Source: an uncultured Candidatus Saccharibacteria bacterium (GTDB lineage: Bacteria > Patescibacteriota > Minisyncoccia > Phycocordibacterales > UBA9973). From it: 64,000 nucleotides of DNA. Below the pieces are notes generated by a model that worked only from the letters and a program-made list of their open reading frames with translations, did no database searches and was not told where the DNA came from. Numbering within the stretch: position 1 is the stretch's first letter; the number at the start of each line of letters is the position of its first letter. Shown one piece after another: positions 1,721 to 63,867 of this stretch. The stretch spans positions 197,532 to 261,531 of the forward strand of contig CAZGOI010000002.1 of the NCBI GenBank assembly GCA_964527185.1, written 5' to 3'. A program made the translations under genes and the position numbers.

Positions 1721-2011
1721 TTACTTTAAATTAGAGGGTAATTGATCTTGTGGCACTTCTTTGATTAGATCTTTAACTGCTTCTTTGCAAACTTCATCTG
1801 ACGCTCGGCCAAATAGACGCGAGTATTGGGATATTAATTTTTCGAGAACTTCTTTTTCGTTACCGTCGATAGAGACTTCGGCATTTTTTTGGTCTATGAC
1901 ATGAAAGCCTTGAACTTTTTTCGCCTCTTCCCAAGCCAAAGGGCCAATAATGAGCTCTTGCTCTTTTATTATTCTTATGGCCATTTGTGGAAATTGTAGC
2001 GTAGCATTCAT
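1721..2011 (-). CDS. hypothetical protein (96 aa)
   Basis: ORF packed between the kinase and the membrane-protein gene with 1–3 nt spacing; no recognisable motif. Confidence 0.35.
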   Translation of the reverse strand: MNATLQFPQMAIRIIKEQELIIGPLAWEEAKKVQGFHVIDQKNAEVSIDGNEKEVLEKLISQYSRLFGRASDEVCKEAVKDLIKEVPQDQLPSNLK

Positions 2012-2014
2012 AAA

Positions 2015-2812: not shown

Positions 2813-2855
2813 CATGTCTTTACATATCAAATTATAATTCTCATAACAAAAGTAG

Positions 2856-3992
2856 TCAAATAAAATAAACCTTGGGTTTAGGGAAACCATTAAATTTACT
2901 TACGGCGGTTAAAGTATAGGCTCCTACGTTGTGAATGATTAACTTATCACCTACTTCTATATCTGCAGGTAATAAAGCTTCTTTAGTTATGATATCTGGC
3001 GAGTCTCCAGTAGGCCCAGCTAAGGAAAATAATTTCTCGCCCGCTTCACCCACAGGTCTCATGCTAGATATCGGATATCTAGTAGAACCTTGGTACGACA
3101 TCGCTTCGAAAAAAGCATTGTATACACCAGCATCTAGGAATAACCATGTCCCGCTGGCTCTTTCGATCTTGCCTATAATAGTAGCTATGACTATTCCTGT
3201 ATCAGCTATTATTCCTCTACCGGGTTCTAAAAGCAAACGTGGTTTATAGTGTAATTTTTTGTACTGTGAAAGAGTGTTGTTGGCAATTTCTTTTAAAGAG
3301 GGTATGTCTTCGCTTGATATGTATTTGCAAGGATACCCTCCGCCAATATCTAGAACTTCTATTTTTATATTTTTCTTTACTAATTCATCAATTACATAAC
3401 TGAGTGATGCAATTCCGTTAGACCAGGCCAGGGGATTACTTGCCTGCGAACCAACATGAAAACTTATTCCATATGGAACGAGTCCTAACTCTTGAGCCCT
3501 GCTAAGCAATGAAACGACATTGCCGATGTCAGTACCAAATTTTTCAGAAAATTTAAAAACGCTGCCTTTGTCGTTTACCACAACTCGAATATATACTTTT
3601 GATTTTGGCGCGACGGCTGCAATTTTTTCTAATTCTTGGAAAGAATCAGCGCAGAATTTACGAACTCCATATTTATAAAATTCCTTAATGTGAGATATTG
3701 GTTTGACAGAGGTCCCATAAATTATATGGTCTGGTTTGACTTTTATTTTTTTTAGCCAAGTTAGTTCGTATTTAGACGCAACCTCAAAAGAACAATGAGA
3801 GTCATTTAAAAACTTGAGGAGTTCAGGCTCCGAATTGGCCTTCATGGCATAGTGGACTAGAGAATTCGGAAAGAGTTTTTTAAATTCGTTTATATGAGAT
3901 TTTATCTTTCTTTTAGAAAAAAGAAAAAAAGGCGTCTCGTGTTTAAGTTTTTTTAATGAAGAAACGCTAAATTCCTTTTCTAGAGTAAACAT
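2856..3992 (-). CDS. fold-type III PLP-dependent decarboxylase (diaminopimelate/ornithine decarboxylase family)
   Basis: 'HYAMKAN' PLP-lysine motif near the N-terminus; 'DIGGGY' and 'EPGR' motifs typical of the LysA/ODC family. Confidence 0.7.
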   Translation of the reverse strand: MFTLEKEFSVSSLKKLKHETPFFLFSKRKIKSHINEFKKLFPNSLVHYAMKANSEPELLKFLNDSHCSFEVASKYELTWLKKIKVKPDHIIYGTSVKPISHIKEFYKYGVRKFCADSFQELEKIAAVAPKSKVYIRVVVNDKGSVFKFSEKFGTDIGNVVSLLSRAQELGLVPYGISFHVGSQASNPLAWSNGIASLSYVIDELVKKNIKIEVLDIGGGYPCKYISSEDIPSLKEIANNTLSQYKKLHYKPRLLLEPGRGIIADTGIVIATIIGKIERASGTWLFLDAGVYNAFFEAMSYQGSTRYPISSMRPVGEAGEKLFSLAGPTGDSPDIITKEALLPADIEVGDKLIIHNVGAYTLTAVSKFNGFPKPKVYFI

Positions 3993-4001
3993 TTAATGCC
4001 T

Positions 4002-4901
4002 CTATTTTAGCACAGAAAGTATTATTATGCCAAAAATAATAACAAAAGTGCCTATAGTTTGAATGCGATTTGGTCTTTCTTTTAAGAAAATTCTGGCAAG
4101 AATTATAGTCGGCAAAGAAAAAGCTCCACTGACTAGAGCCACGACGCTAGTTTTTGAAGTAGTGCTATAACCCAAACTTATAGACAGATAGCCTATCGTC
4201 TCGCAAAGACCTATGAGAATAAGAAACTTCCAAACATGTGGCTTGTGAAAAATCGTCTTTATTTTTCGTGCATAGCAGACTATCCATATATATATGGTCA
4301 TAGACAAATACATAAACAGCGAATAAGAAAACCAATCTTGACCGCTTATGAATTTGTCCCAAAAAAGAGTCCATAGAGAAGCAAATATAGTAGCTAGAGC
4401 TACTTTTTTAAAGCCGGGAACTTTGCTGATTTTAAAACTTTTTTCCTTTAAAGCTTTTAAATCTAGATTGATGAACAAAATACCAACAAAAACTATAATT
4501 AAAGAAATCACTACGTGCCCAGTTACCATCTCACCAAAAATTAATATAGAAAAAATAGCAGTAAACCCTGAGAACGAAGAAAAGACGGGGTTCAGAACTG
4601 AAACTTGACCCTGGCCGAAACCTTTATAAACTAGAATATAAATAATTGCTTGAAAAACCCCAAAGAAAACTAAGAGGAGTAATACTTTGCTATCTCCAGG
4701 AATTAGAAATGGTTTGCCAATTTTATTAAAATAATAAAATGCAAATATTATGAGAGTAATAACCCCAAAGATATGCGCCCAAGCTAAACTCGCAATGTCT
4801 CCAATTTCATCGATCGTCTTTTTAGCAAAAAAATCGGCCAACCCCCAGCCAAGCATGCCACCAAGCCCAGCCAATATAGCAACAAATAATTCATTTTGCA
4901 T
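4002..4901 (-). CDS. DMT/EamA-like membrane transporter (about 10 TM)
   Basis: Two repeated 5-TM halves; hydrophobicity pattern of the EamA family. Confidence 0.5.
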   Translation of the reverse strand: MQNELFVAILAGLGGMLGWGLADFFAKKTIDEIGDIASLAWAHIFGVITLIIFAFYYFNKIGKPFLIPGDSKVLLLLVFFGVFQAIIYILVYKGFGQGQVSVLNPVFSSFSGFTAIFSILIFGEMVTGHVVISLIIVFVGILFINLDLKALKEKSFKISKVPGFKKVALATIFASLWTLFWDKFISGQDWFSYSLFMYLSMTIYIWIVCYARKIKTIFHKPHVWKFLILIGLCETIGYLSISLGYSTTSKTSVVALVSGAFSLPTIILARIFLKERPNRIQTIGTFVIIFGIIILSVLK

Positions 4902-4933
4902 TGTAAATTAATTATACCATTCTCTATGTAATT

Positions 4934-6037
4934 TTATATCCCCTCTTTTTTTAGATCTTCGATTAAATCTTTAGATTTTTTAGAAAGTTTGCTTGGCATT
5001 TTGATGAGCACTCGCATTATGATGTCGCCTCGGCCGTGGCCGCTCGGCACACCCTTGCCACGAATACGAAGCAATTCGCCGTGGTTTACACCTTCTGGAA
5101 TTTTAACTTCGATAATTTTACCTTCGAGAGTTTTGAGTTCATATGTCATACCAAGAAGCGCGTCGGAGAGTTTGACGTGGACATCAAGATTTAAATTCGA
5201 GCCATCGCGCTTGAAAACCGAGTGCGATTTGACATTGACTTTGATATATAGGTCTCCCGCTTGCCCGCCACGAATTGCTTCACCGAGGCCAGTCATGCGA
5301 ATCATCTCGCCATTGTTAATGCCGCTTGGAATATTTATGGTAATTTCTTCTTGCTTTTTCAAAACTCCAGCTCCGCGACATTCGTTGCATTTTTCTGTTG
5401 GAACTTTGCCTTCGCCGAAACACGTATCACAGGTGCGAACGCTCGAAAAACTTCCAAGTATCGAGCGTTTGACTTCGCGCACTTGGCCTTGGCCGTTACA
5501 GGTCTTGCAGGTTTCCATTTTTGTTCCAGGTTTTGCGCCGGTACCTTTACAGATGTCGCATTTTGATTGTTTTGCGATCAAAATTTTTCTGGTCGCGCCA
5601 AAAATTGAATCTTCAAAAGAAATATCTATCTCGGTTGAGATATCACGCCCGCGGCGAACTCCACGAGACCTGTTCATGCTACTGCCAAAGAAATCGCCAA
5701 AAATATCGCCCAAGTCACCCATATCAAATTCGACATTTCCATTTTGGAAGCCTGATTGAAAGCCACTGAAATCAAAACCGCCAAAACCTTGCCCGTTGAA
5801 ACCGCCAGCGCCCGGGTTGAAACCCTGGGGTCCAGATGAACCAAAGCGATCGTATTGGGCGCGCTTCCCGTCATCAGAGAGAGTCTGATAGGCTTCGTTG
5901 ACTTCTTTAAACTTTTTATCATCACCCTTGTTTTTATCTGGGTGGTGCTTGTGGGCGAGCTTGTGAAAAGCCTTTTTTATTTCATCTTTTGAAGCGTTTT
6001 TAGTAACTCCTAGAATTTCGTAGTAATCTTTAGCCAT
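4934..6037 (-). CDS. dnaJ: chaperone DnaJ
   Basis: J-domain 'YYEILGV...HPDKN'; G/F-rich linker; four CxxCxGxG zinc-finger repeats. Confidence 0.92.
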
Positions 6038-6151: not shown

Positions 6152-8035
6152 TTATTTTTGCCCTTCGTTTTCTTTTGTTTCCGCGTCTTTTACTTCTTGC
6201 CCTTGTTGTTCTGGTGTCGCATTTTCTCCGCCGGCAGATTTACTAACGGCTTCGCCGATTTTTGAGACTTCGGTTGTTAGAGCTTCGAGTGCAAATTTTA
6301 TGGCCTCAAGGTCAGAACCATCTTTTGCGGTTTTAGCCGCTGCAATTTTTTCTTCAACTCCAATTTTTATTTCGCTAGGAATTTTATCGCCATATTCTTT
6401 TAGAGATTTCTCGGCAGAGAATATCATCATCTCGGCGGTGTTTTTCTCATCGACGAGTTCTTTCTTTTTCTTGTCTTCTTCGGCGTGTAGTTCGGCATCG
6501 GCTTGCATCTTTTTAATATCGGCATCGGTCAATCCAGACGAGGCTTCGATACGGATCGACTGCTCTTTGCCACTAGCTTTATCTTTGGCTTTGACATTAA
6601 GAATTCCATTGGCGTCGACATCAAAAGACACTTCGACTTGTGGCATGCCGCGCGGAGCTGGCGGAATGCCATCGAGAATAAACCGCCCGAGGGATTTATT
6701 GTCGCTTGTCATTGGTCGTTCGCCTTGGGTGATATGAATCTCGACACTTGTCTGGTTGTCGGCAGCAGTCGAGAAGACTTGGGCTTTTGAGCTTGGGATA
6801 GTAGTGTTGCGCTCGATTAATTTTGTCGATACGCCGCCCAAAGTCTCGATACCGAGCGATAGTGGAATGACATCAAGGAGTAGCACGTCTTTGACATCGC
6901 CCTGCAAAACTCCGGCCTGAACTGCGGCACCGAGAGCGACGACTTCATCTGGGTTGATAGAGCGATTTGGTTCTTTACCAAATAAATTTTTAACAGCTTC
7001 GACGATAGCCGGCATGCGTGTCTGCCCGCCGACCATGATGATTTCATTTATTTCATTCATCTTAAAAGGTGAGGCTTCCATTGCGCGCTTTGTGATCTCG
7101 ATCGAGCGATCGACATATTCCTGGGCTAGAGATTCGAGAGTGGCGCGAGTCATCTTTATGAGCAAGTGCCTTGGGCCTGAAGAATCTGAAGTTATGAATG
7201 GAATATTTATTTCTGTTTCTGGGGTTGTCGAGAGTTCGATCTTTGCTTTTTCGGCAGCTTCATCGAGACGCTGGAGAGCCAGAGGGTCTTTGGTAATGTC
7301 GATACCACTTTCTTTTTTAAATTCTGTTGCCAGCCAATTGATAATCTTTTGGTCGATATCGCGGCCACCCATGTGTGAATCGCCATCGGTCGATTTGACT
7401 TCGATAACATCGTCTGAAACTTCAAGGACTGAGACGTCGAATGTTCCACCACCAAAATCGTAGACGACTATCTTTTCATTTTTCTTTGTGTTGAATCCAT
7501 AGGCCAAGGCTGCGGCTGTCGGCTCGTTGATAATGCGTTTGACATCGAGGCCTGCGATCGCGCCGGCATCCTTGGTTGCCTTTCTCTGCGCATCGTTGAA
7601 ATAGGCCGGTACGGTTATGATGGCCTCGGTAATTTTTTCACCGAGTTTGGCCTCGGTGTCGGCTTTGAGTTTGGCCAAGATCATTGCAGAAATTTCTTCT
7701 GGGCGATACCATTTGTCTCCAATTGAAACTTCGACACCACCATCCTTACCTTTTTGCGATTTGAATGGGTTTGTTTTTTCATCTTTCTGAATTTCTGCGT
7801 CGTCGAACATGTGCCCCATGTATCGCTTGATACCGTAGATTGTGTTTTGTGGGTTTGTAACTGCTTGGCGCTTGGCGAGAAGCCCAACCAATCGGTCGCC
7901 ATTTTTTGCAACAGCGACGATCGATGGAGTCGTCCTTCCACCTTCGATATTTTCTATAATCTTTGGCTGACCACCTTCGATGATAGCAACCGCGCTATTT
8001 GTTGTACCCAAGTCTATACCAATTATTTTTGACAT
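6152..8035 (-). CDS. dnaK: chaperone DnaK (Hsp70)
   Basis: '[14 protein letters not shown]', 'DLGGGTFD' and a substrate-binding domain with lid; 627 aa. Confidence 0.96.
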
Positions 8036-8047
8036 ATTTTTTATAAA

Positions 8048-8563
8048 TTAACTTTTAATATTTTTAATAACTTCTTCGACTACTTCTTCAAGGGGTTTGT
8101 TTGTATTTATTGGTATTGCACCCATATCAATCATTTTTCTTTCAAAATCCTTATGCCAATCCTTCATCATTTCTTGCACTGACTCATGTTTCCCAAAATC
8201 ATTATTTGTTCGTTCAATAATTCTTTTTATAAATATTTCATTATCTGTTCTAAGTAAAAAAACTTTATCAAATAAATCTAGATATTCCTTTTGGTTATCT
8301 GTAAGGCCAACTGCAATAGATATATCATGGCCCTCAAATAAACTGAATAATTGTTCCTTATCACATATACGTTTATTGTTTTTAAAAAATTCTTTATTTG
8401 TACCAGCATGTCCATGATAAATTTCACTTGTATTTTTATTAACCCATTTACATAACCCTGATACTTTGTCTATATCTACAACATGAAACCCTTTTTTCTT
8501 CAACTCTTCACCAGTCGTAGATTTACCTGTACCAGAGACACCAGTTATATAAAATTTCTTCAT
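8048..8563 (-). CDS. P-loop NTPase / small kinase-like protein
   Basis: Walker A 'GVSGTGKST' at the N-terminus; 171 aa. Confidence 0.55.
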   Translation of the reverse strand: MKKFYITGVSGTGKSTTGEELKKKGFHVVDIDKVSGLCKWVNKNTSEIYHGHAGTNKEFFKNNKRICDKEQLFSLFEGHDISIAVGLTDNQKEYLDLFDKVFLLRTDNEIFIKRIIERTNNDFGKHESVQEMMKDWHKDFERKMIDMGAIPINTNKPLEEVVEEVIKNIKS

Positions 8564-8660
8564 GCGAGCCTAATTATATAGTTAACATTTATTTTTAACA
8601 AGTATTTAGCGACCGCTAAAACTATGTTGATATTATATTTATAGTTGATATAATGTCAAT

Positions 8661-9203
8661 ATGGCAAAAAAATCATTGATCAAAAAGGCTATTTTAAGAG
8701 CTTTTAACGAAAATAAGCCTATTTCTATGGATACGATAAAAAAAACCACCGAGAAGCCTATTTTGCGCGAATACGAGGGTAAAAATGCCAATTATTCTAT
8801 CAATAGGTCTATGAAAAACATGATCGCTGATGGTTTGGTTGAAACCCTAAACTCTGAACACAGCCAATACTTCCGCCTAACCCCTCTTGGCAAACAAGAG
8901 CTAAACAATATCGCCATCGAAGCCGAGGGTGGGCTCGTGTCTACCCATTGGGACGGATATTGGAGGATAATAATTCTTGATATTCCAGAAGATCGCAAGA
9001 GCGAGCGCGAAGCCCTGCGCTACCTGCTTAAAAAAGCGGGGTTTGTGTGTGTAAAAAATTCTGTTTGGATTTCTATGCTTCCGTTTGAAAATCTTTTCAT
9101 AAATATAAAAAAAGATCTCGGCCTAACAACCGAGATGATGATAATAGTGACAGAAAAAATTGATTCTGAAACCGAAGAAGAATTCTTTAAATTAATTAAA
9201 TAA
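8661..9203 (+). CDS. PaaX-like transcriptional regulator (winged helix plus C-terminal domain)
   Basis: C-terminal 'WDGYWRIIILDIPEDRKSEREALRYLLKKAGFVCVKNSVWIS' resembles the PaaX C-domain consensus. Confidence 0.4.
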   Translation: MAKKSLIKKAILRAFNENKPISMDTIKKTTEKPILREYEGKNANYSINRSMKNMIADGLVETLNSEHSQYFRLTPLGKQELNNIAIEAEGGLVSTHWDGYWRIIILDIPEDRKSEREALRYLLKKAGFVCVKNSVWISMLPFENLFINIKKDLGLTTEMMIIVTEKIDSETEEEFFKLIK

Positions 9204-9205
9204 AT

Positions 9206-9787
9206 TTAATTTTTATACTCCCAGATTTTTACACGAGCGGGGCGCAGAACTCGCCCTGCCTCGGTGACAGATGGGTCGCCTATTTTGTAGCCTGATTGGA
9301 TAACACTTTCGATAATGTGGTCTTTGTTTTCTTCGTCGGTCTCTATAGATTCAACGGCTTCGTGAAGGTTGGGATCAAATTTTACTCCGACACTATTTAT
9401 AACTGTGATTTTATTGTCCGCAAAAGCTTGGAGGAATTTTGAATGGATATACTCTATTCCCTGCCGCCAATTTTTATCGACGCTCTCCCAAGCAGTCTTG
9501 TTGCCCATGGCCATATCGAAAGCATCGAGCGCTGGCAAAATCGAATCGACGAGTTCTTCTACCCCGAGTTCTTTGCCTCGCGAAAATTTTGCTTCGGCTT
9601 CTTTTTGCAAGTTAATATAGTCGGCCTTGGCCCTCTGCCAGCCGGTTAAATATTCTTCTTTCTCATCTTTTAGTTTTTTATTTTCGGCGCGAAGTCTCTT
9701 CATCTGGTCTTTTTTCGGCAATTCATCACCGTCTTCGGTACTGTCGACAAAAGCAACGTCTTCAAAATTTTCTTCATCTTTTTCCAT
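9206..9787 (-). CDS. grpE: nucleotide exchange factor GrpE
   Basis: Coiled-coil N-terminus with KLK repeats; C-terminal 'SVIQSGYKIGDPSVTEAGRVLRPARVKI' matches the GrpE beta-domain. Confidence 0.8.
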   Translation of the reverse strand: MEKDEENFEDVAFVDSTEDGDELPKKDQMKRLRAENKKLKDEKEEYLTGWQRAKADYINLQKEAEAKFSRGKELGVEELVDSILPALDAFDMAMGNKTAWESVDKNWRQGIEYIHSKFLQAFADNKITVINSVGVKFDPNLHEAVESIETDEENKDHIIESVIQSGYKIGDPSVTEAGRVLRPARVKIWEYKN

Positions 9788-9847
9788 AAGTGCTACTAGT
9801 ATACAAAAAAGTATGTTTTTTGCAAAAGAAAAACCTCTTGCGAGGTT

Positions 9848-10258
9848 TTATCTTTTACTCCACTGCGGAGCTTTGCGGGCTTTTTTGAGGCCGAACTTGC
9901 GGCGTTCTTTTTGGCGAGGGTCGCGTTTGAGCATTTTTGCTTTTTTCAAATTTGATCGCAGTTCGCTGTCAAACATAACAAGCGCTCGAGAGATGCCGTG
10001 TCGCACAGATTCGGCTTGGGAATTGATGCCCCCGCCTTTGGCGGTGACGACGACTTCAAATTTTTGCGAGTGACCAGCTTGGTCGAAAGCGCCAGTCACG
10101 ATCTTTTTCAGAGTGGCAGTTTTAAAATAATCTTCTAAATTTTTACCGTTTATCGAATAGGTCGTCTTGGTGGCTTTGTGTATTCGCACAACGGCAGTCG
10201 AAGTCTTGCGTCGGCCGATAGCTCTGATGTATTCATTTTTAGAAATTTTCTTTTCCAT
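9848..10258 (-). CDS. rpsI: 30S ribosomal protein S9
   Basis: 'GRRKTSTAVVRI', 'GGGINSQAESVRHGISRAL', C-terminal 'KKARKAPQWSKR'. Confidence 0.92.
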   Translation of the reverse strand: MEKKISKNEYIRAIGRRKTSTAVVRIHKATKTTYSINGKNLEDYFKTATLKKIVTGAFDQAGHSQKFEVVVTAKGGGINSQAESVRHGISRALVMFDSELRSNLKKAKMLKRDPRQKERRKFGLKKARKAPQWSKR

Positions 10259-10261
10259 ATT

Positions 10262-10624
10262 TTAATCGGTTATTGTTAAGCGCTTCATCATTTGCGGGCG
10301 AAGCTTATTGCCAGGCAACATCCCATAGATAGCAAGTTCATATAGCTCTTTCCATCCTTTATTTTTTAAAATCTTGGCATTGGTGCGCAATTTCAAACCG
10401 CCTGGGTGGCCAGAATAGCGCTCATGAATAGTTTTTTCACGGCGAGCTTCGGTCATCTTTGTTTTCGAAGCGTTTACAACATTCACTCGAACATCTGCCA
10501 CGCGGTTGGCTACATAGTCGGCCGAGTTCTTGCCCATAAGAGCCTTGGCGGCAGCCGAAGCTACTCGCCCGAGCGTCTTTCCATCTGCATCGATTGTGTG
10601 TGTCTTTGTCATAAATTTATACAA
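10262..10624 (-). CDS. rplM: 50S ribosomal protein L13
   Basis: 'HTIDADGKTLGRVASAAAKALMGK'. Confidence 0.9.
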   Translation of the reverse strand: MYKFMTKTHTIDADGKTLGRVASAAAKALMGKNSADYVANRVADVRVNVVNASKTKMTEARREKTIHERYSGHPGGLKLRTNAKILKNKGWKELYELAIYGMLPGNKLRPQMMKRLTITD

Positions 10625-10970
10625 ATTCTATTACTACCATCTTGCTCGCATCACCTGCGCGTCGTGGTAACTTTATAATACGGGTATAGCCACCTTTGCG
10701 GTCTTTATATTTTGGAGCAATTGTTTTAATAAGTTTCGATGACGGAGTTTTGAGGTTGTAGAGCTTGGCTGTCACTAAACGAGTCGATGAAAGCGTGCCG
10801 ACGTTTGCCTTGGTTATTAATTTTTCAATCGCTGGGCGAAGTTCTTTTGCCTTGGCTTCGGTCGTTTCTATTCTGCCGTGTGAAATGAGCGACAAGATCA
10901 ACCCCCTCAAGAGAGCGGTTCTGGCATTTTTCTTTCTTCCAAATTTTCTAACATTGCTGTGGTGTCGCAT
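10617..10970 (-). CDS. rplQ: 50S ribosomal protein L17
   Basis: 'MRHHSNVRKFGRKKNARTALLRGL...HGRIETT'. Confidence 0.9.
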   Translation of the reverse strand: MRHHSNVRKFGRKKNARTALLRGLILSLISHGRIETTEAKAKELRPAIEKLITKANVGTLSSTRLVTAKLYNLKTPSSKLIKTIAPKYKDRKGGYTRIIKLPRRAGDASKMVVIEFV

Positions 10971-57362: not shown

Positions 57363-57411
57363 TGCCTTTTGAGTCTTTTTTTGATAGTATATTTGGCATT
57401 CCAGAGTAGCT

Positions 57412-57528
57412 GAAATGCGAAGCATTTCAGAGGCGGACTTCGACCTTGGGTCGAGGAGCTGGGGTCGCGAAATTTTCTAGCAAGAAAATATTAGTGACCA
57501 GCGGTTCCGCTTTGCTACTCTAGAAACC
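57412..57528 (+). repeat. conserved structured about 100-nt element, copy 2, flanked by 16-nt direct repeats of the tRNA-Asn 5' end
   Basis: GCATTCCAGAGTAGCT (57396-57411) matches GCATTCCGGAGTAGCT (57529-57544). The insert has a perfect 8-bp hairpin TGAAATGC-GAA-GCATTTCA and the core GGGGTCGCGAAATTTTCTAGCAAGAAAATATTAGTGA. Confidence 0.5.
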
Positions 57529-57532
57529 GCAT

Positions 57533-57604
57533 TCCGGAGTAGCTCAGCGGTAGAGCAGTCGCCTGTTAAGCGATTGGTCGCAGGTTCGATCCCTGCCTCC
57601 GGAG
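57533..57604 (+). tRNA. tRNA-Asn (anticodon GTT) with a U1:A72 acceptor pair; CC of CCA encoded
   Basis: Acceptor TCCGGAG/CTCCGGA, D-arm GCTC-AGCGGTA-GAGC, anticodon stem GTCGC/GCGAT with loop CTGTTAA, T-arm GCAGG-TTCGATC-CCTGC, discriminator G then CC. Confidence 0.8.
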
Positions 57605-58205
57605 CCCTATAGGTTGGTTAGAAGTTGCAAGTATCTTGTCAAAGGGAGAACGCATTGAAAACACTAGGTTTTTTCCTTCTAACTGACAGTTCTGAAGTAG
57701 AAAATTAAGAAGTTGCCTTTTTTCAGGCACTTCAGAACTCTTGAAAATCTCAAGAGCTCTTTTTGCTATGTTTAGTATTGTATTTGCAATCAAATAGAAC
57801 TCTTCATCTGCTTCAGAGTGAATACTCATATCTGTGAGAATAGCACTTTGTCTTTCTTTGAACTCTTTCAATTTTCTGTCATACATTTCATCAGTAATTC
57901 GCCTCATACGATATACCATATTCGCCTATAATATTCTCAGCTAGTTTAGTATATTTATTATTTGTTGCAGTTTGAGCTTCTCGTTTTAGTTTCTCATATC
58001 TATCAGAAATTGAGTAAACCATAGGCAGTTTTCTGAAATTAGTTTCTTTATTTTTCTCTTTTTTCAGTAGTTTTATTTTATTAACAAATGGTTTGTTTTT
58101 CAATAATTCACTAAGATAAGAAACCATTTTTGTATTGGCTTTTGATTTTTTGCCGATAAAGTAATCTGGGTATTCAATATCAGATATATCTTTCATATTA
58201 TTCAC
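57566..58205 (-). pseudogene. two overlapping out-of-frame ORFs resembling the C-terminal region of a large serine recombinase (remnant); the 3' end reads antisense through tRNA-Asn
   Basis: ORFs 57891-58205 and 57566-57919 overlap by 29 nt in different frames. The distal C-terminus 'KRQLLNFLLQNCQLEGKNLVFSMRSPF' resembles the LSR C-terminal motif, and the last 13 codons are the reverse complement of the tRNA. No catalytic N-terminal domain is present. Confidence 0.3.
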
Positions 58206-58283
58206 TTTACTTTAGTTTACAATACTTAGCAACATTTTGTTGTATAAATACGCAAATTAAGTTATAATTCAGATACAAAAATT

Positions 58284-58751
58284 ATGGATAAAAATCATCA
58301 ATTATTAGCATATTTAGCTAAAGAACATCCTTCAGCTTCTATCACAGTATTGATGAAGCTCTCTTATTTAGTTGATCTTGTAAGCGTAAAAAAATTAGGT
58401 CAAAAGATTTCTTCTTTTGATTATATTCGTTATAGTTATGGTCCATTTGCTCAAGAGGTTTATGGTATTGTTGAGGACCTAACTCTTAAAAAAATACTCG
58501 CTACAAAAAATGATTATGCAGGTGGTAGTGTTGAATATATAACTTATACATTTACTAATTCTGAAGATTTTTCTTTTGATAAATTGTCAGAAGAAGAGGT
58601 TTCTGTAATAAATGAAATGATGTCTGAACTAAAGGGCTATGGTGCTAAAACTTTAACTGAAATAGCATACAAAACTAAACCTATGGTTGGTCTAGGTGCA
58701 ACGCTTGGTGGGACTGAGGGTCTTTTCAAAAAACTTGATCTAGCTCAATAA
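58284..58751 (+). CDS. Panacea (DUF4065)-domain protein, putative antitoxin-like
   Basis: 'SITVLMKLSYLVDLVSVKKLGQKISSFDYIRYSYGPFAQEVYGIV' matches the Panacea/SocA-GepA-like core (KLxKLxY...W..GPV...Y pattern). Confidence 0.5.
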   Translation: MDKNHQLLAYLAKEHPSASITVLMKLSYLVDLVSVKKLGQKISSFDYIRYSYGPFAQEVYGIVEDLTLKKILATKNDYAGGSVEYITYTFTNSEDFSFDKLSEEEVSVINEMMSELKGYGAKTLTEIAYKTKPMVGLGATLGGTEGLFKKLDLAQ

Positions 58752-58754
58752 TAT

Positions 58755-59261
58755 ATGCAGATGCCTGAAGCGGTTACTTTGATGTATTATCATCCTAGAA
58801 ATACATTTGCTGATAAAACTTCAGAAGAAGAAAGAACGGGTGTAATCAAAAAGAAATATAAGTTGTTATTCAAACAGCATAAAGAATTAGGTCTTTATGT
58901 GTTTTTTGTTTTGACTAGTAGTCCTTCTGCTTGTGTGAAGGAAAGAATGTTTTCTATAAATAAAACAGATTGGGAAGAAAGATTAGGAAACAGCTTAGAT
59001 GCTGATTGCTCATACACTGATATTCAAAGCCATTCAGTAGTTCACGATAAAAGCGAGGTTTTAGAAAAAGCCAGTAATCCTAAAATAGGTTTTTCTTATG
59101 TGGCTAAACTATATCAATCAAAGTTCAATGAATTATCCACTGCAATAGAAAACTATCTTTCTGCTACAACAGCAAAGACGGATATTGAAAAAAGAGATTT
59201 CTTAAAAAGTATTGTTCTTGAAGATAAAGCTACAGATTTTATCAATAAGTTTAAGGTTTAG
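58755..59261 (+). CDS. hypothetical protein, candidate toxin partner of the Panacea-domain gene
   Basis: 168 aa; starts 4 nt after the Panacea ORF stop; no recognisable motif. Confidence 0.35.
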   Translation: MQMPEAVTLMYYHPRNTFADKTSEEERTGVIKKKYKLLFKQHKELGLYVFFVLTSSPSACVKERMFSINKTDWEERLGNSLDADCSYTDIQSHSVVHDKSEVLEKASNPKIGFSYVAKLYQSKFNELSTAIENYLSATTAKTDIEKRDFLKSIVLEDKATDFINKFKV

Positions 59262-59340
59262 CTTCCAGTTTGCTGTATCTTGGAAAGAAGGTCATTATTT
59301 GGCTAAAACCTAATTCTTTTTGTATTTCTTTCCAGTTTAT

Positions 59341-59401
59341 AGTTCTGAACTCGGACAATACAGGGAGCCAACTTGACTTTTATATATTTTTATGCTACTA
59401 T
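59341..59401 (+). promoter_or_regulatory. operator-like inverted repeat plus sigma-70-type promoter (module copy 1)
   Basis: IR AGTTC-T-GAACT (59341-59351); -35 TTGACT (59373-59378), 17-nt spacer, -10 TACTAT (59396-59401). Confidence 0.45.
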
Positions 59402-59517
59402 ACGAATGTAGCGGCTCTTTGATATTAATGGTTGTTTATGATTGATTTTGTTGGGTTTTCCCTACACCTTTATAGGACTAGAGAAAACTCAATAATTCAA
59501 AAACTAAAACAATTAAA

Positions 59518-59976
59518 ATGAAAAAAATTCTTGATGAAGAAATCGTAATAAGCAATATCCAATACATCTATCCTGTATTACCTACAGGAGACGAATTAAG
59601 GATTGCACTAGGTGCACTATCTCTGACCAATCAAAAATCGAACGTCAATGATGATTGCCATCCAATGATAGTTGGGTGGAACGAAAACTCCGCAGTCGAT
59701 TTTGCTGACTTTCAATGGTGGATTAAGTGCCTCATTGAAGAAAGCCATTTTATTATTGGGAAGAAGATTATCACTTTTGCAGAAAAATTAGATCTGTACC
59801 CTGAGGAAGCTTGTGGAGAACCTTCTGTCACTTTAAAATTCAAAGACGGTACAATGTTCAGAATTACACAAAGAGACATCAGCAAGCCGATTGAAGTTTG
59901 CGTACGAGGCGATGGCCCAAATTTCCTGAAGATGAAAATTAAGGAATACGGGTACACTCCTATTCCTTTCGATTAA
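59518..59976 (+). CDS. hypothetical protein (152 aa), cassette 1
   Basis: ORF preceded by the module promoter and leader, followed by a terminator hairpin. Confidence 0.4.
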   Translation: MKKILDEEIVISNIQYIYPVLPTGDELRIALGALSLTNQKSNVNDDCHPMIVGWNENSAVDFADFQWWIKCLIEESHFIIGKKIITFAEKLDLYPEEACGEPSVTLKFKDGTMFRITQRDISKPIEVCVRGDGPNFLKMKIKEYGYTPIPFD

Positions 59977-60001
59977 ATTCATCTAAAATAGAAAATAATT
60001 T

Positions 60002-60031
60002 AAGTTCCTTGCCAAAACAAGGAACTTTTTA
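60002..60031 (+). terminator. rho-independent terminator after cassette 1
   Basis: AAGTTCCTTG-CCAAAA-CAAGGAACTT followed by TTTTT. Confidence 0.65.
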
Positions 60032-60072
60032 TATACATAGCTGATATAAAGTAAAAATGTTAATATTAATTA

Positions 60073-60600
60073 ATGGAATATTTGGATATCTGTGATGAAA
60101 AAGGAAATTTGACAGGAATCAAAGCTTTGAAAAAAGAAGCTCATGAGAAAGGCCTCTGGCATAGATCAGTTCATATCTGGATTTTAAACTCAAAAAATGA
60201 ATTATTAGTGCAAAAAAGATCTCCGTTAATGGATAACCATCCTAATGAGTGGGATATTTCAGCTGCAGGGCATGTATCAGCTGGAGAAGATAACATAACT
60301 TCTGCCTTACGAGAAACCGAAGAAGAACTTGGTTTAAAACTTTCTCCTGGAAATTTTACTCTCATTGGGACTATTCAACAAAGGTCTGCGCGTGAAGGAT
60401 ATATAAATAATGAAGTAAACCCTATCTATGTTGTTAAAATGGATTTAGATCTAAGTAATATAAAAAAGCAGGTAGAAGAAGTTTCAGAAGTAAAATTTAT
60501 TCCTTATCTTGAATTGAAAAAACTTATTGATAATAAAGACCCTTATTTTGTTAAACACCCTAGTGAGTACGAACTTCTTTTCAGTTATTTATCACAATAA
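60073..60600 (+). CDS. NUDIX hydrolase
   Basis: Nudix box 'GHVSAGEDNITSALRETEEELGL' (G-x5-E-x7-REUxEExGU). Confidence 0.8.
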   Translation: MEYLDICDEKGNLTGIKALKKEAHEKGLWHRSVHIWILNSKNELLVQKRSPLMDNHPNEWDISAAGHVSAGEDNITSALRETEEELGLKLSPGNFTLIGTIQQRSAREGYINNEVNPIYVVKMDLDLSNIKKQVEEVSEVKFIPYLELKKLIDNKDPYFVKHPSEYELLFSYLSQ

Positions 60601-60633
60601 AGCCATTCTAACTTCATCCCAGGTTCGGAGCAA

Positions 60634-60670
60634 TAAACAGAAACGGCACCTTTTGGTGCCTTTTCTGTTT
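60634..60670 (+). terminator. rho-independent terminator after the NUDIX gene
   Basis: AAACAGAAACGGCACC-TTTT-GGTGCCTTTTCTGTTT. Confidence 0.75.
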
Positions 60671-60770
60671 ATCTAACTCCGGGGTAAGAAAGCAAACTAC
60701 TTTGCTTTCGACAGGGATCGAAGGATTGATAATGTTTTATTTATAAAACTATCAATCACGCGCCGTGGGC

Positions 60771-60792
60771 GAGATTCCCTGCCTCCGGAGCC
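60771..60792 (+). repeat. direct repeat of the tRNA-Asn 3' end (att-like)
   Basis: CCCTGCCTCCGGAGCC (60777-60792) is identical to tRNA-Asn 57591-57606; the upstream GAGATTC resembles the T-loop. Confidence 0.6.
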
Positions 60793-60794
60793 AG

Positions 60795-60823
60795 TTGACA
60801 AATATATTAAATTATTCTATACT
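60795..60823 (+). promoter_or_regulatory. sigma-70-type promoter (module copy 2)
   Basis: -35 TTGACA (60795-60800), 17-nt spacer, -10 TATACT (60818-60823), immediately after the tRNA-like repeat. Confidence 0.45.
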
Positions 60824-60835
60824 AGAAACAGTATC

Positions 60836-60922
60836 GTAGTTCTTTGATATTTTTTGGTTATTTAGTTGTATTTGGTGGATTATCCTTGCTTCTTTTTAGG
60901 AGGTTAAGATAATTCACTAAAT
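60836..60922 (+). repeat. conserved 87-nt leader, copy A (near-identical to 61450-61536)
   Basis: GTAGTTCTTTGATATTTTTTGGTTATTTAGTTGTATTTGGTGGATTATCCTTGCTTCTTTTTAGGAGGTTAAGATAATTCACTAAAT, with 1 substitution relative to copy B. Confidence 0.7.
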
Positions 60923-60947
60923 AATTCACAATTAAATACCAAAAAAA

Positions 60948-61229
60948 ATGGATGCAAATCAATTTCCCAACGACAACGATTTAGTTAATCCTGAAGACCC
61001 TTACTCACCAACCGAAAAAGAGGTTCGTGAATATATGGAAATGGGATATAGTCGTTCAGGTGCAATATCTTCACTCACCACAACCAAAAAAAATCGTGAA
61101 GAAGAATACGACCCTTTTCAGGAAGGTGATGCTGAGGAAATGGATGCAATTCGTAACCCCCATGTATCAATGGAGGGTATGATGTTAAAAGTTAATCAGC
61201 ACTATGGACCACCTTCAAATGAGGACTAA
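60948..61229 (+). CDS. hypothetical acidic protein (93 aa) with a UBA-like motif, cassette 2
   Basis: 'EVREYMEMGYSRSGAISSL' resembles the UBA helix-1/2 consensus (..L.eMGF.r..a..AL); Asp/Glu-rich. Confidence 0.35.
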   Translation: MDANQFPNDNDLVNPEDPYSPTEKEVREYMEMGYSRSGAISSLTTTKKNREEEYDPFQEGDAEEMDAIRNPHVSMEGMMLKVNQHYGPPSNED

Positions 61230-61296: not shown

Positions 61297-61417
61297 GAGT
61301 TCTGAAGTGTTCATCATTTGAAACATCTCAAAAATATTACTAAACTCAATATCTCTTTTAATTTGAACCCAGTTAAGAGTTCTGAACTCATCCACTAGTG
61401 GGAGCAAATACTTGACT
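61297..61417 (+). repeat. inter-cassette repeat (about 120 nt) carrying the IR operator and the -35 (copy 1)
   Basis: Starts TGAGTTCTGAAG, contains CATCTCAAAAATATTACTAAACTCAATATCTCTTTTAATTTGAACCCAGTTAAGAGTTCTGAACTCATCCACTAGTGGGAGCAAATACTTGACT. It is closely similar to 62101-62215. Confidence 0.6.
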
Positions 61418-61440
61418 TTTTATATATTTTATGCTATCAT
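61378..61440 (+). promoter_or_regulatory. operator-like inverted repeat plus promoter (module copy 3)
   Basis: IR GAGTTC-T-GAACTC (61378-61390); -35 TTGACT (61412-61417), 17-nt spacer, -10 TATCAT (61435-61440). Confidence 0.45.
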
Positions 61441-61449
61441 GCTCAGGTA

Positions 61450-61536
61450 GTAGTTCTTTGATATTTTTTGGTTATTTAGTTGTATTTGGTGGATTATCCT
61501 TGCTTCTTTTTTGGAGGTTAAGATAATTCACTAAAT
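61450..61536 (+). repeat. conserved 87-nt leader, copy B
   Basis: Near-identical to 60836-60922. Confidence 0.7.
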
Positions 61537-61559
61537 ATAAACAATTAAATAATCAAAAG

Positions 61560-62039
61560 ATGAACATAAGTAACAGAACAAAGAAGTATGCCGAGATGTT
61601 GAACTATCAAGGTCATAGGCATCCAGTAATTAAGGCATTGATAGTTGTTTTTGAAATACTTGATGATTACACAAGTAGAGTAAAAGCAGGAGAAGACGGA
61701 GACCGTTTTCTTTCAATGTTGGGAGGGCTGGAAAAAGCAGATAGGCAGAGTTTGGTCAAAAAAAGCAATCGTGCTTTCTGGGGACAGGGACATTTCACCA
61801 GCGAAAATACGTCAGAATTATTTGCTCTCATCGGAGTAACTGATGAAAAAGCAAAAGTTTTTGAAGGATATGATTTCATATGGGAAATATTTAGCTCAAA
61901 AGGAAATACTCCCGAAGAAATATTTTCAAATATGAGAACGGCTATGTCACCTCCTGCCAGATTCTTGTTGGAACAAACCTATGATTCCTTCAAGAATGAA
62001 ATGATTACAATGTATTATCGTTACTTCCAAGTAAGGTAA
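61560..62039 (+). CDS. hypothetical protein (159 aa), cassette 3
   Basis: ORF with the module promoter and leader upstream and a strong terminator downstream. Confidence 0.4.
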   Translation: MNISNRTKKYAEMLNYQGHRHPVIKALIVVFEILDDYTSRVKAGEDGDRFLSMLGGLEKADRQSLVKKSNRAFWGQGHFTSENTSELFALIGVTDEKAKVFEGYDFIWEIFSSKGNTPEEIFSNMRTAMSPPARFLLEQTYDSFKNEMITMYYRYFQVR

Positions 62040-62100: not shown

Positions 62101-62215
62101 TGAGTTCTGAAACCCTGCTACAGGAAATGTCTCAAAAATCTTAGAAAACTCAATATCTCTTTTAATTTTAACCCAATTAAGAGTTCTGAACTTGTCCACT
62201 AGGGGGAGCATTTTT
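62101..62215 (+). repeat. inter-cassette repeat, copy 2 (degenerate, no intact promoter)
   Basis: TGAGTTCTGAAACC...CTCAATATCTCTTTTAATTTTAACCCAATTAAGAGTTCTGAACTTGTCCACTAGGGGGAGCA. Confidence 0.55.
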
Positions 62216-62628: not shown

Positions 62629-62733
62629 AGCGTTTATTTTTTAGTTTACAAATAATCTATCATAAAATAATCTTTTGTAAATACCACTGGTTCTGAAACA
62701 GTTGAACTGGAAACACATCAAAAATCTTAGGTT

Positions 62734-63867
62734 TTAGAATTTCACAGTAAGTGGCGAGCCAAGACCAGTGACATAATCGTAATGAGCTCGGGCTTCGCAA
62801 TAATAACCGCAGTTACCGTTTGATCCGTTTTTAATATCTCTAAAAAATTTAGTGGGAGAATTGGAAGATTTATCAGTATAAAATTTTTCGTTACCAGTTG
62901 AAAGTCCGAGTGACTGGATAGCTGCCCATTGTGGGGCAGCAGCGCTAGTGCCACCGACTACATACCAATTGCCATGCCTATAAACTGGAAAACCTGATTT
63001 CGGATCTGCGTCGTAAGAAACATCAGGAATCGAACGCATTCCATTAGCACGAGGAATCGCATAGCTATTTTGATAATTAGGTTGTTTTTCGTAAGCACTT
63101 ACTCCTCCACCCGAACCATTCCAAGCCAATTCTTTTAAAAAAGATCCATGCGAGTCAAATGTCAGACTAGTGCCACCGACAGCCACTACAAATGGTGATG
63201 CAGCAGGCCAACTAGCTCCAGTGCCATTGTCTCCCGAGGCGGCAAAGAAAACCGCGCCAAAGTTACTTTGAAAATGTGAGTCGAGCGATAGTTCTTCTGG
63301 AAATTCTGCTCCGCCGAAACTCATAGATATTGCTACTGTATTTGGATTATTGCGGGCATAATCAATGGCGTCTAAAAGATTTTTTCCGGATGGAGTTTTT
63401 GCTTCTACCAAAAGAATTTTTGCCAAAGGGGCAATAGCATGGGCCCACTCTACATCGAGTGAGGTTTCCATAGCCCAGCCACTGTTCGTTTTCGTGTCTT
63501 TTGCCATCAGGTGTTTTTCGAAACAACTATTTGTAACAGTACACGAAGGTAGGTTAAATTGAGAACTGAATACATTCAGGTCTTTTTCGATTGTACTATC
63601 GTCATAAGCTCCGATAATAGCTATGGTTCCTTGCCCGCCACTATCAGGCAGATTGTAAATTTTTTTAATTATATCTGGCGAGATTCCTTTTGGGGTGTTA
63701 GTTGCTTTACCATACACATGAATTGGATGTTTAGCTTTGAAATTGTTAAAATGATAATCCGCCAAAGCGAATTGAGGTATACAAAAACTCAAAACTATAA
63801 TAATCAAATAAAATTTTCTCATTGTTTTATAAACTTTAACATAAAGGGAAGATTTTTTATTTACCAA
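62734..63867 (-). CDS. secreted S53 (sedolisin)/S8-like serine peptidase
   Basis: Signal peptide; 'GTIAIIGAYDD', 'ASGDNGTGA', 'VGGTSAAAPQWAAIQSL' match the subtilase-clan SB Asp/Ser motifs, and the SGD motif favours S53. Confidence 0.65.
   Translation of the reverse strand: MVNKKSSLYVKVYKTMRKFYLIIIVLSFCIPQFALADYHFNNFKAKHPIHVYGKATNTPKGISPDIIKKIYNLPDSGGQGTIAIIGAYDDSTIEKDLNVFSSQFNLPSCTVTNSCFEKHLMAKDTKTNSGWAMETSLDVEWAHAIAPLAKILLVEAKTPSGKNLLDAIDYARNNPNTVAISMSFGGAEFPEELSLDSHFQSNFGAVFFAASGDNGTGASWPAASPFVVAVGGTSLTFDSHGSFLKELAWNGSGGGVSAYEKQPNYQNSYAIPRANGMRSIPDVSYDADPKSGFPVYRHGNWYVVGGTSAAAPQWAAIQSLGLSTGNEKFYTDKSSNSPTKFFRDIKNGSNGNCGYYCEARAHYDYVTGLGSPLTVKF

Follow-up and report, generated by a model that had tools for sequence, protein, structure and literature searches.

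Serial insertion as the probable origin of a tRNA-Asn island in a bacterium of the candidate phyla radiation, beyond its perfect tRNA-end repeat

The window, as the whole 64-kb stretch of DNA analysed here is called, includes near one end a tRNA-Asn gene whose 3' end is repeated about 3.2 kb downstream, and the interval between the two copies opens an island of accessory genes. The island is poor in guanine plus cytosine (G+C): 0.29-0.35 over 58-63 kb, against about 0.41 elsewhere in the window. The host is a Paceibacterota-like bacterium of the candidate phyla radiation (CPR), because the closest relatives of the Fmt protein encoded beside the locus (63% identity) are metagenome-assembled genomes of Candidatus Paceibacterota and Nomurabacteria. 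The window is reproduced by three Logan contigs of run SRR12313479 (contigs used for comparison carry L numbers): L028 stops at 57589, L029 covers 57560-60865, and L030 covers 61482-65427. Thus the island could be read to about 65.4 kb, i.e., the window to 64 kb plus an extension of about 1.4 kb in L030. Population heterogeneity at the repeat was considered as a cause of the contig ends at 57589/57560 and 60865 and rejected, because they are explained by k-1 overlaps: the overlaps are 30 nt long and lie at a tRNA k-mer common to other organisms and at an 88-nt leader repeat. The Logan contig ends give no sign of an alternative arrangement. Transfer RNA genes were called with ARAGORN and Rfam, domains were sought in Pfam, PHROGs, NCBIfam, and PDB sequences, contig L044 was compared with the window by blastn, and 100 shuffles served as the control for the repeat.

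The tRNA-Asn(GTT) gene (57533-57606, plus strand; ARAGORN 57532-57607; Rfam RF00005 57533-57604, 70.8 bits) is intact and intron-less, and is the single gene of its kind in the host. It ends in GGAGCC followed by C; the encoded CCA is lost at the junction, where the sequence reads CCC. The last 17 nt of the gene, TCCCTGCCTCCGGAGCC (57590-57606, plus strand), recur exactly at 60776-60792 on the same strand, 3186 nt away. The repeat corresponds to tRNA positions 59-75, i.e., the last two T-loop bases, the 3' strand of the T stem, the 3' strand of the acceptor stem, the discriminator G73, and CC. The distal copy is preceded by GAGAT and followed by A, with a -35 box two bases farther on; this copy alone encodes CCA. 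Both copies are found by independent Logan contigs in the same contexts as in the window. An earlier note on this DNA had described a direct repeat of 16 nt; both copies stand, and the length is 17 nt. Exactly two copies of the 16-mer exist in the window, also when 2 mismatches are permitted, and 100 shuffles contain none, so the tRNA-end repeat is confirmed as real, with none expected by chance. The same note had allowed that the match might be explained by the consensus of the promoter-linked modules described below, an explanation that fails, as the common part is only GGAGC(C)A.

A metagenome scan with the 22-nt tRNA end recovered 57 other tRNA-Asn loci from many phyla, all unoccupied, from unrelated organisms, and usable only as a control. 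The base after GGAGCC is A in 56 of the 57, and a second copy of the 14-nt tRNA end was found at none of them (14 of the 57 include more than 3.2 kb downstream). All matches of the 17-mer in a viral collection are tRNA-Asn genes that belong to large tRNA arrays on jumbo-phage-like contigs and are uninformative, and neither the pattern of the tRNA-proximal junction (attL) nor that of the distal copy has a match there.

Abutting the tRNA is an open reading frame (ORF) of 117 codons (57566-57919, minus strand) that runs antisense into the tRNA gene, its product ending ...QPIGL|RRQGSNLRPIA. Searches of the four domain and structure collections with this ORF and with the neighboring 104-residue ORF gave no match. 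A homology search recovered 58 close homologs of the 117-residue protein in CPR metagenomes, and homology to these relatives stops at 57898-57903. A search with a longer relative, from Vogelbacteria contig L042, reached proteins of up to 389 residues that carry PF07508 (Recombinase) and PF13408 (the zinc ribbon Zn_ribbon_recom). The family profile (A5) matches the A118 integrase in its C-terminal domain (4kis_A, E 2.3e-6), and the window's fragment falls in the coiled-coil motif. Moreover, contig L112, a nanopore-style contig with the same chromosomal backbone, has a full-length gene of the family at the same place beside tRNA-Asn; its N-terminus, read from a hand-stitched and error-ridden sequence, matches the PF00239 resolvase catalytic domain (E 6.5e-6, motif ALARVSAKEQ). 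Because the longer homologs carry recombinase domains and the family profile matches the A118 integrase C-terminal domain, the ORF adjoining the tRNA is the C-terminal tail end of a large serine recombinase (LSR). The LSR-derived part (57607-57919, minus strand) comprises, judging from homologs and profile, the distal coiled-coil motif together with the final zinc-ribbon strands. The window's own fragment lacks the catalytic domain, PF07508, and PF13408, of which the latter two are present in homologs with the same C-terminus; the resolvase catalytic domain is also missing from family copies of 389-409 residues.

Recombinase homology starts at one point (...NGGNGN|ATTAC..GATGAAATGTATGAC) in at least eight independent contexts, whatever lies upstream. 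This shared start is at 57898-57903 in the window and near 9996 in L040, 1043 in L044, 10105 in L047, 9984 in L050, 9925 in L043, and 8000 in L113. Copies that consist of the fragment alone keep 95 codons, with ratios of nonsynonymous to synonymous substitution (dN/dS) of 0.03-0.18, and these codons are under purifying selection. The fragment protein of L040 is identical to the longer gene of L042 (pS 0.036), which implies that truncation at this point is recurrent rather than inherited. A free coiled-coil domain with a selected function is possible. Within the fragment coding region, an inverted repeat AGTTCTGAAGT...ACTTCAGAACT at 57688-57739 (codons KSSEV...LLQNC) includes the word GTTCTGAA, which also occurs in the P arm of the recombination site described below, and is conserved in L040, L042, and L047. 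No intact recombinase was found in 57.6-65.4 kb (ORFs to 64 kb searched with Pfam, the L030 extension read from precomputed Pfam labels), nor was a tyrosine integrase (PF00589) among the ORFs of 57.6-64 kb, the L030 extension being covered via precomputed Pfam labels only. In a coarse Pfam scan of the large ORFs in the rest of the window for a recombinase that could act in trans, the first 25 of 81 families are all housekeeping families.

Upstream of the recombinase fragment on its own strand lies the 104-residue ORF (57891-58205, minus strand), without a family match, between the fragment and a pair of plus-strand genes. The first of the pair (58284-58751) encodes a 155-residue protein with a Panacea domain (PF13274, E 1.1e-16), a SocA-like antitoxin candidate; the second (58755-59261) encodes a 168-residue partner without a family match, a candidate toxin. 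The two are therefore described here as a candidate toxin-antitoxin pair. In L047 and L043 an analogous, unrelated partner gene stands beside the Panacea gene, and the L047 version of the segment lacks the 104-residue ORF. The pair is followed by module 1 (59283-59369, plus strand), which contains AGTTCTGAACT and ends in GGAGCC at 59364-59369.

The identity of module 1 is apparent from the C-termini of the recombinase homologs, which fall into two classes. About 20 run into antisense tRNA (...QGSNLRPIA, ...QDSNLRPID), and in about 22 the protein goes on into a conserved tail, ...LP[LV]L[DS]EFRT[LI][DN]W.... The DNA that encodes this tail in L040, CCTATAGGGCTCCCTCTACTGGACGAGTTCAGAACTC, is the reverse complement of the window's module consensus, and minus-strand translation of modules 1, 3, and 4 gives open tails of 36-39 codons. 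The minus strand of module 1 encodes the tail LPVLSEFRTINWKEIQKELGFS..., which matches the tail of the recombinase P0002 over its first 22 residues. Accordingly named by its place in the site, the P arm consists of GAGTTCTGAACTC followed by GGGAGCC and encodes the last 35 or so residues of the recombinase, and the P' arm is the coding sequence of its coiled-coil end.

Contig L044, which encodes P0002 and derives from other samples, carries the two arms joined. Its positions 1044-1341 match window positions 57898-57601 at 96.3% identity, its positions 1336-1402 match 59369-59303 at 94%, and the two blastn matches overlap by exactly 6 nt, GGCTCC. The same 6 nt, as GGAGCC at 57601-57606 on the plus strand, join the tRNA B arm to the P' arm in the window, and the junction GGAGCC|CTATAGG also occurs in L042, L047, and L112. 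L044 thus shows the joined attP (P|P'), with the window's tRNA|P' junction as attL, its P|B' junction (module 1) as attR, and GGAGCC as the common core; the three sites share GGAGCC alone, with no long duplication upon integration. A second comparison involves L047, with the order tRNA-Asn, fragment, Panacea gene, partner gene, and P arm, and L043, in which the fragment continues across the core into the tail, with the same partner and Panacea genes as in L047 behind it, at about 72% protein identity. These two contigs are circular permutations of one mini-element opened at the core. A 391-residue ORF beside the joined form in L043 was considered as the N-terminal half of a split recombinase and rejected, as it has no recombinase domain. 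Because L044 and the L043/L047 pair show the joined form of its ends, the segment 57607-59369 is a discrete, non-autonomous mini-element of 1.76 kb without a recombinase of its own. The attP site is embedded in the 3' end of the recombinase gene itself, whose last 35 or so codons are therefore replaced upon integration.

These comparisons do not support the reading of the two repeat copies as attL and attR of one 3.2-kb element, which the earlier note had proposed: it is module 1, and not the 17-nt repeat, that pairs with the tRNA junction. The junction between the distal left flank and the remnant that is expected of a 3.2-kb element was found in none of about 100 homologous ORFs, among which a joined form was seen for 57607-59369 only and not for the interval bounded by the 17-nt copies. 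The contents listed for that interval were all found (the recombinase remnant, now placed in the LSR family; the Panacea pair; a first cassette; and a NUDIX hydrolase). The GGAGC(C)A box beside the -35 elements of the modules is also real, but it is the recombinase core and not a promoter element.

A further trace of the site anatomy is the motif GTTC. Counted from the AG of GGAGCC, it occupies positions 22-25 in the P arm (GAGTTCTGAAC) and positions 17-20 in the tRNA arm, where it belongs to the T-loop GGTTCGA. In serine integrases the motif bound by the zinc-ribbon domain is 5 bp nearer the center in attB than in attP (Rutherford et al., PMC3783163). The 5-bp GTTC shift fits this attB/attP rule in a way that is suggestive only; it is visible in the left arms alone, and GTTCAGAAC also encodes the conserved residues FRT.

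Between the mini-element and the distal repeat copy lies a cargo segment (59370-60676, plus strand). It begins with a promoter, TTGACT-17-TACTAT (59373-59401), and a hairpin leader, and contains a 152-residue ORF (59518-59976) and a NUDIX hydrolase gene (60073-60600; PF00293, E 6.5e-17), each followed by a plus-strand terminator (60002-60027 and 60645-60672, respectively). The segment is succeeded by a structured, tRNA-like element of 116 nt (60677-60792, plus strand), whose end is formed by the distal repeat copy. It is closed by an acceptor-like stem of 8 bp, CTCCGGGG with CCTCCGGAG, in which an upstream TCCGGGG that mimics the tRNA 5' end is paired. Its interior includes a hairpin, AAAGCAAA-CTAC-TTTGCTTT, and a T-arm-like stem, CAGGG/CCCTG, around a 50-nt insert. 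Relative to shuffled sequences, the fold of 60677-60792 has z -5.1 as RNA and -7.2 as DNA.

Similar features are found upstream of tRNA-Asn genes. Directly upstream of the window's tRNA-Asn lies a structured region, 57385-57530 (RNA z -5.45 for 57397-57530), which opens with GCATTCCAGAGTAGCTGAA, a near-copy of the tRNA 5' end plus 4 nt of flank; a 12-bp stem with GCTACTCTAGAA, immediately ahead of the real tRNA, closes it. Positions 57461-57498 share 84% identity with the sequence upstream of the L042 tRNA-Asn. Partial copies of the tRNA 5' end with hairpins also lie upstream in L042 and in L047, where they take the form of a 68-nt repeat that includes the promoter, plus a 110-nt insert. The L047 copy has a similar 5' mimic and a GAAGCAAA-N4-TTTGCTTTC hairpin, both in common with the window's distal element. 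There may be a family of tRNA-Asn-like structured elements in these genomes. Rfam has no family for the distal tRNA-like elements, and a common fold for those of the window and L047 was not found; their interiors are unalignable, and for L047 the prediction gives no closing stem in common with the window.

The distal copy in L047, from a second Paceibacterota genome, is a counterpart of the window's arrangement. It is 16 nt long (TCCTACCTGCGGAGCC), lies 1.73 kb downstream, and is identical to the end of L047's own tRNA-Asn, which differs from the window's at several positions. Identity begins at the border of T loop and T stem, with the same GAGAT|TCC left boundary as in the window, and after the copy there is again an A and then a strong promoter. 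This arrangement, with its different repeat sequence, is present in three assemblies of that genome (L047-L049). Since the distal copy matches its own tRNA and has the same left boundary, it is locally derived and its left boundary is site-specific. Serine-recombinase crossover at GGAGCC cannot make a 17-nt duplication, and the window's distal copy therefore needs a separate origin. When the mini-element is taken out in silico, the proximal end would read ...GGAGCC|AACTTGAC, again CCA and then a promoter. The anatomy of the window's repeat equals that of the 17-bp attO repeats (CCAGTCAGAGGAGCCAA, right after GGTTCGAGT) that bound integrase-bearing islands and integrase-less modules at the asn-tRNA hotspot of Enterobacter (PMC2801613).

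The cassette array continues past the repeat, as the earlier note had observed, with modules 3, 4, and a partial module 5 and their cassettes beyond 60792. The first cassette after the repeat (60795-61229, plus strand) has the promoter TTGACA-17-TATACT (60795-60823), an 88-nt hairpin leader (60836-60923), and a 93-residue ORF (60948-61229). It is followed by module 3 (61298-61406, plus strand), a P-arm scar with the core GGAGC at 61401-61405 and the open minus-strand tail ORF LPLVDEFRTLNWVQIKRDIEFS..., and next to this by the promoter at 61412-61440. That promoter belongs to a second cassette (61412-62039, plus strand), with its leader at 61450-61537 and a 159-residue ORF at 61560-62039. Module 4 (62103-62210, plus strand) is a further P-arm scar with its core GGAGC at 62205-62209 and the tail ORF LPLVDKFRTLNWVKIKRDIEFS..., succeeded by promoterless AT-rich sequence; the partial module 5 (62688-62740, plus strand) retains the left part of the P arm only, its core missing. 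The three highest-ranking promoter matches here (59373, 60795, 61412) start a few bases after the cores at 59364, 60787, and 61401, and the arrangement of core and promoter recurs in L050. Because these junctions are clean, the units of promoter, leader, ORF, terminator, and P arm may be discrete cassettes, as their layout suggests. An attC-like nature of the modules was considered and rejected, as they fold no better than shuffles (z -1.2, +1.2, -0.5).

The cassette leaders form long hairpins, rich in G·U pairs and strand-specific, that extend as far as the start codon, with z values of -3.5 to -9.5 (59408-59520, z -3.45; 60830-60950, z -7.9; 61447-61562, z -9.5). The leaders at 60836-60923 and 61450-61537 share 99% identity, yet precede unrelated ORFs. 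Such leaders may be cis-regulatory or processing elements. A weak Rfam mir-4662 match in the leader region was discarded as being only the leader hairpin.

At its far end, the island includes accessory genes that run past the window's end in L030: a protease-like gene, beyond which a Fic/Doc gene and an HTH_17 gene form a pair. The protease-like gene (62734-63867, minus strand) encodes a secreted protein of 377 residues with a faint subtilisin-like match (NCBIfam QhpE, E 0.0035), and module 5 overlaps its 3' end. The Fic/Doc-family protein (138 residues) and the HTH_17 protein upstream of it (97 residues) are encoded at L030 2407-3121, i.e., at about 63.9-64.6 kb and straddling 64000. The two are probably another toxin-antitoxin pair, and the island thus extends beyond 64 kb. 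In L050, four P-arm/tail units of the recombinase form an array at 7860-10700 that has no tRNA; the coiled-coil fragment is joined to one of them (the attP form), at least two have outward promoters after them, and an rve-family transposase is nearby.

The recombinase family abuts tRNA-Asn in L042, L047-L049, L108-L111, and L112; in L113, the neighbor of a more distant branch is tRNA-His. The window's GyrA...HisRS-Def-Fmt backbone recurs in L108 (there also HPF) and L112, both of which are occupied by other elements of the same recombinase family. The shared backbone, with the same family at tRNA-Asn, marks this gene as an integration hotspot in the lineage. The tRNA-Asn gene of L004 is unoccupied, with a terminator immediately after it; the contig ends 50 nt past the tRNA.

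The locus carries two attachment signatures, a 6-nt serine-recombinase core with P-arm scars and a classical 17-nt repeat of the tRNA end. The interpretation favored here, to which a probability of roughly 60% is assigned, is that the 3.2-kb interval represents at least two stacked insertions in a hotspot island that grew by serial insertion. The youngest event, as the comparisons show, is the insertion of the 1.76-kb mini-element (57607-59369) by an LSR acting in trans, with crossover inside the GGAGCC at the discriminator/CCA end of the tRNA. The recombinase tail was thereby swapped for antisense tRNA sequence and the tail-coding arm left at the far end as attR, i.e., module 1. The candidate Panacea antitoxin and its partner gene are the cargo of this event and probably stabilize the insertion. 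For an older event we infer that the 17-nt repeat is the footprint of a separate integration, with the identity block running from the T loop to CC. This integration would have delivered 59370-60775 (the promoter, the 152-residue ORF, the NUDIX gene, and the structured left part of the tRNA-like element) and pushed the original end of the tRNA gene, together with the CCA that it encodes and the promoter after it, out to 60776 and beyond. Its recombinase would since have been lost, as in the integrase-less modules of the Enterobacter hotspot. The oldest events would be still earlier serine-recombinase insertions of promoter-leader-ORF cassettes, of which modules 3, 4, and 5 would be the P-arm scars. 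Serial insertion rather than one simple element had already been suspected in the earlier note, correctly, and more P-arm scars lie past the repeat. Since no intact recombinase could be found in it up to about 65.4 kb, the island is now fixed, short of a recombinase acting in trans.

Several observations sit uneasily with this history. The distal copy is part of an unusually well-folded tRNA-like element with a 5' acceptor mimic, a feature not accounted for by a passive scar. Only about 190 nt separate the distal copy of L047 from the apparent tRNA terminator before it, so that the element delivered by the older event would be almost empty there, and no distal copy was found in L108 (10 kb), L112 (4.4 kb), or the tRNA-His-targeting L113 (8.3 kb). 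No recombinase able to make a 17-nt repeat, tyrosine-type or other, was seen in 57.6-65.4 kb. Clean junctions of core and promoter (modules 1 and 3, and similarly L050) are not expected from random decay of ordinary elements, and the right-hand half-sites have no recognizable recombinase motif. An empty site was not recovered, one metagenome scan having given distantly related tRNA-Asn loci only, and the Logan contigs of the same sample show only the integrated arrangement.

The simplest rival takes 57607-60775 as one 3.2-kb element that entered at once, with the two 17-nt copies as attL and attR, the recombinase remnant as the element's own integrase, and module 1 as internal cargo. A perfect direct repeat flanks the interval, the remnant lies at its tRNA-proximal end, G+C is uniformly low, and one Logan contig covers nearly this interval (57560-60865). 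Yet the remnant comes from a serine recombinase, and the partner site demonstrated for it (L044; L047/L043) is module 1, where the core measures 6 nt and a long repeat is lacking; no homolog has a junction of distal left flank and remnant; P-arm modules occur both within and outside the interval; and the Logan ends are due to k-1 overlaps at the tRNA branch and the 88-nt leader repeat. A single entry is consequently regarded as very unlikely. That the match is a coincidence or an assembly artifact is hardly credible. The assembly is a metagenomic one, and tRNA ends are common break and chimera points, but none of the 100 shuffles has even one copy, independent Logan contigs reproduce both, and the same arrangement occurs with a different repeat in the three assemblies L047-L049. 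A third alternative holds that the distal copy is not a scar at all: a resident family of tRNA-Asn-derived structured RNAs or pseudo-tRNAs would lie on both sides of the tRNA and be kept identical by duplication or gene conversion. It would account for the strong structure of the distal element as RNA and DNA, for the partial 5'-end copies and hairpins upstream of the tRNA in the window (57397-57530), L047, and L042, for the 5' mimic and GAAGCAAA-N4-TTTGCTTTC hairpin shared between the L047 upstream element and the window's distal element, and for the match of each distal copy to its own tRNA in both genomes. However, tracts of gene conversion would not be expected to stop at one and the same base in both genomes, whereas the sharp common left boundary GAGAT|TCC is the mark of a site-specific crossover. 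Rfam offers no match, the interiors of the distal elements are unalignable with no shared closing stem predicted in L047, and unoccupied relatives (L006; L004 as far as the contig goes) have no such copy. A resident family seems improbable as the source of the repeat.

The remaining alternative is a serine-recombinase cassette platform with an integron-like logic, in which the tRNA-Asn end serves as attI and cassettes are added serially at GGAGCC by a recombinase in trans. The tRNA-like element would then be a second attB-type landing site, or a cassette end with a B-type arm, and the coiled-coil fragment an expressed regulator of recombination. In favor of such a platform, a -35 box stands within 1-10 nt after every core (59373, 60795, 61412; L050), the P arms keep open tail ORFs, and cargo varies between recombination modules that are otherwise 94-96% identical. 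The fragment begins at the same nucleotide in independent contexts with dN/dS 0.03-0.18, the identity of the L040 fragment protein to the longer L042 gene makes truncation recurrent, and the distal site is identical to the tRNA arm out to position 15 from the center. Against it, hybrid P|B' sites are products and not substrates by the rules of serine integrases (PMC3783163), and GTTC is missing from positions 17-20 of the distal copy. None of the cassettes was encountered in more than one array, the window has no intact recombinase that could be found, and the P-arm modules are not attC-like in fold. As an explanation of the repeat, this account is judged unlikely. The broader proposition that a serine recombinase, rather than an integron integrase, runs the locus as a platform for cassette capture, with a fixed tRNA-Asn site, cassettes ended by P arms, a second B-type site, and a regulatory 95-residue fragment, is doubtful but conceivable. 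Tentative to the same degree, and jointly with the platform, is the idea that the fragment controls recombination (e.g., by blocking or redirecting synapsis).

Serial insertion at a tRNA gene has well-described parallels. In the asn-tRNA hotspots of enterobacteria, which host high-pathogenicity islands and integrative and conjugative elements (HPI/ICE) with a P4-like tyrosine integrase, the target gene and the repeat anatomy are the same as in the window: 17 nt from the 3' strand of the T stem, just after GGTTCGA(N), through the acceptor strand to CCA. There, several successive repeats delimit tandem islands and integrase-less modules (PMC2801613). Unlike these hotspots, the window has no tyrosine integrase that could be found, its sole recombinase trace is of the serine type with a 6-nt core at the tRNA end, its distal copy lies within a tRNA-like fold, and its host is a CPR bacterium with a single tRNA-Asn. 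In the tycheposons of Prochlorococcus, repeated integration at one tRNA pushes older elements inward and leaves fragmented integrases and scattered partial tRNAs, and a minority use large serine recombinases (bioRxiv 10.1101/2020.12.28.424599). In contrast, the scars in the window are mostly recombinase P arms rather than partial tRNAs, and its mini-element has no recombinase and no replication module, the cargo being a candidate toxin-antitoxin pair.

The window's recombinase family shares with the large serine integrases of phages (A118/LI, Bxb1, phiC31) the resolvase domain, the recombinase domain, and the zinc ribbon with its coiled coil, as well as short sites with a tiny common core, no long duplication, and, suggestively, a motif 5 bp nearer the center in attB. 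It differs from them in that attP lies in the 3' end of the recombinase ORF, whose last 35 or so codons are replaced, that the target is a tRNA 3' end, and that most copies are cut to the coiled-coil part at one recurrent breakpoint and are under purifying selection. An attP within the integrase gene is also typical of archaeal integrases of the SSV1 type, for which integration into a tRNA gene partitions the integrase gene. These are tyrosine recombinases whose gene is split roughly midway, whereas here a serine recombinase loses its C-terminal tail only. With integrons, the window has in common an array of short single-gene units, each with a conserved recombination-site module, beside one fixed site. 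Unlike integrons, it has no IntI that could be found, its modules do not fold like attC, its cassettes have their own promoters and leaders, and the fixed site is a tRNA end.

As a kind, the tRNA island is already known; what is new is the recombinase family, the attP site within its own gene, the putative toxin-antitoxin mini-elements, and the tRNA-like element. The mobile elements of CPR bacteria (Patescibacteria) are poorly known, and the locus bears on how such tiny genomes with single-copy tRNA genes take up accessory genes. From sequence alone, the locus defines a serine-recombinase family with both of its sites (the GGAGCC core, the T-arm attB of tRNA-Asn, and an attP in the 3' end of the gene), and it provides examples of non-autonomous, putative toxin-antitoxin mini-elements that use GGAGCC sites, in an island that records several insertions. 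Compact serine integrases that target tRNA genes are of interest as tools for genome engineering. For annotation, the locus teaches that repeated "promoter modules" can be recombination-site scars and that a perfect tRNA-end repeat need not bound a single element. A cassette platform, if true, would be a new route to integron-like arrays in streamlined CPR genomes.

Some minor features of the compared tRNA-Asn loci and of the window complete the description. In L004 (12018-12140), the long stem of the terminator is palindromic with the tRNA 3' end (GGGGGAGC ATAATAAAAAAGCGCC ... GGCGCTTTTTTATTAT GCTCCCCC). The tRNA-Asn genes of L047 (10411-11020) and L042 (about 625-900) have anticodon-loop introns of about 250-560 nt, and both genes are missed by ARAGORN and Rfam. 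The L047 intron contains a 109-residue ORF with an HNH-like CxxC...HH pattern; the window's tRNA-Asn is free of introns. Additional stretches of low G+C (0.32-0.35) occur at 2000-5000 and 8000-9000 of the window, within an otherwise housekeeping region.

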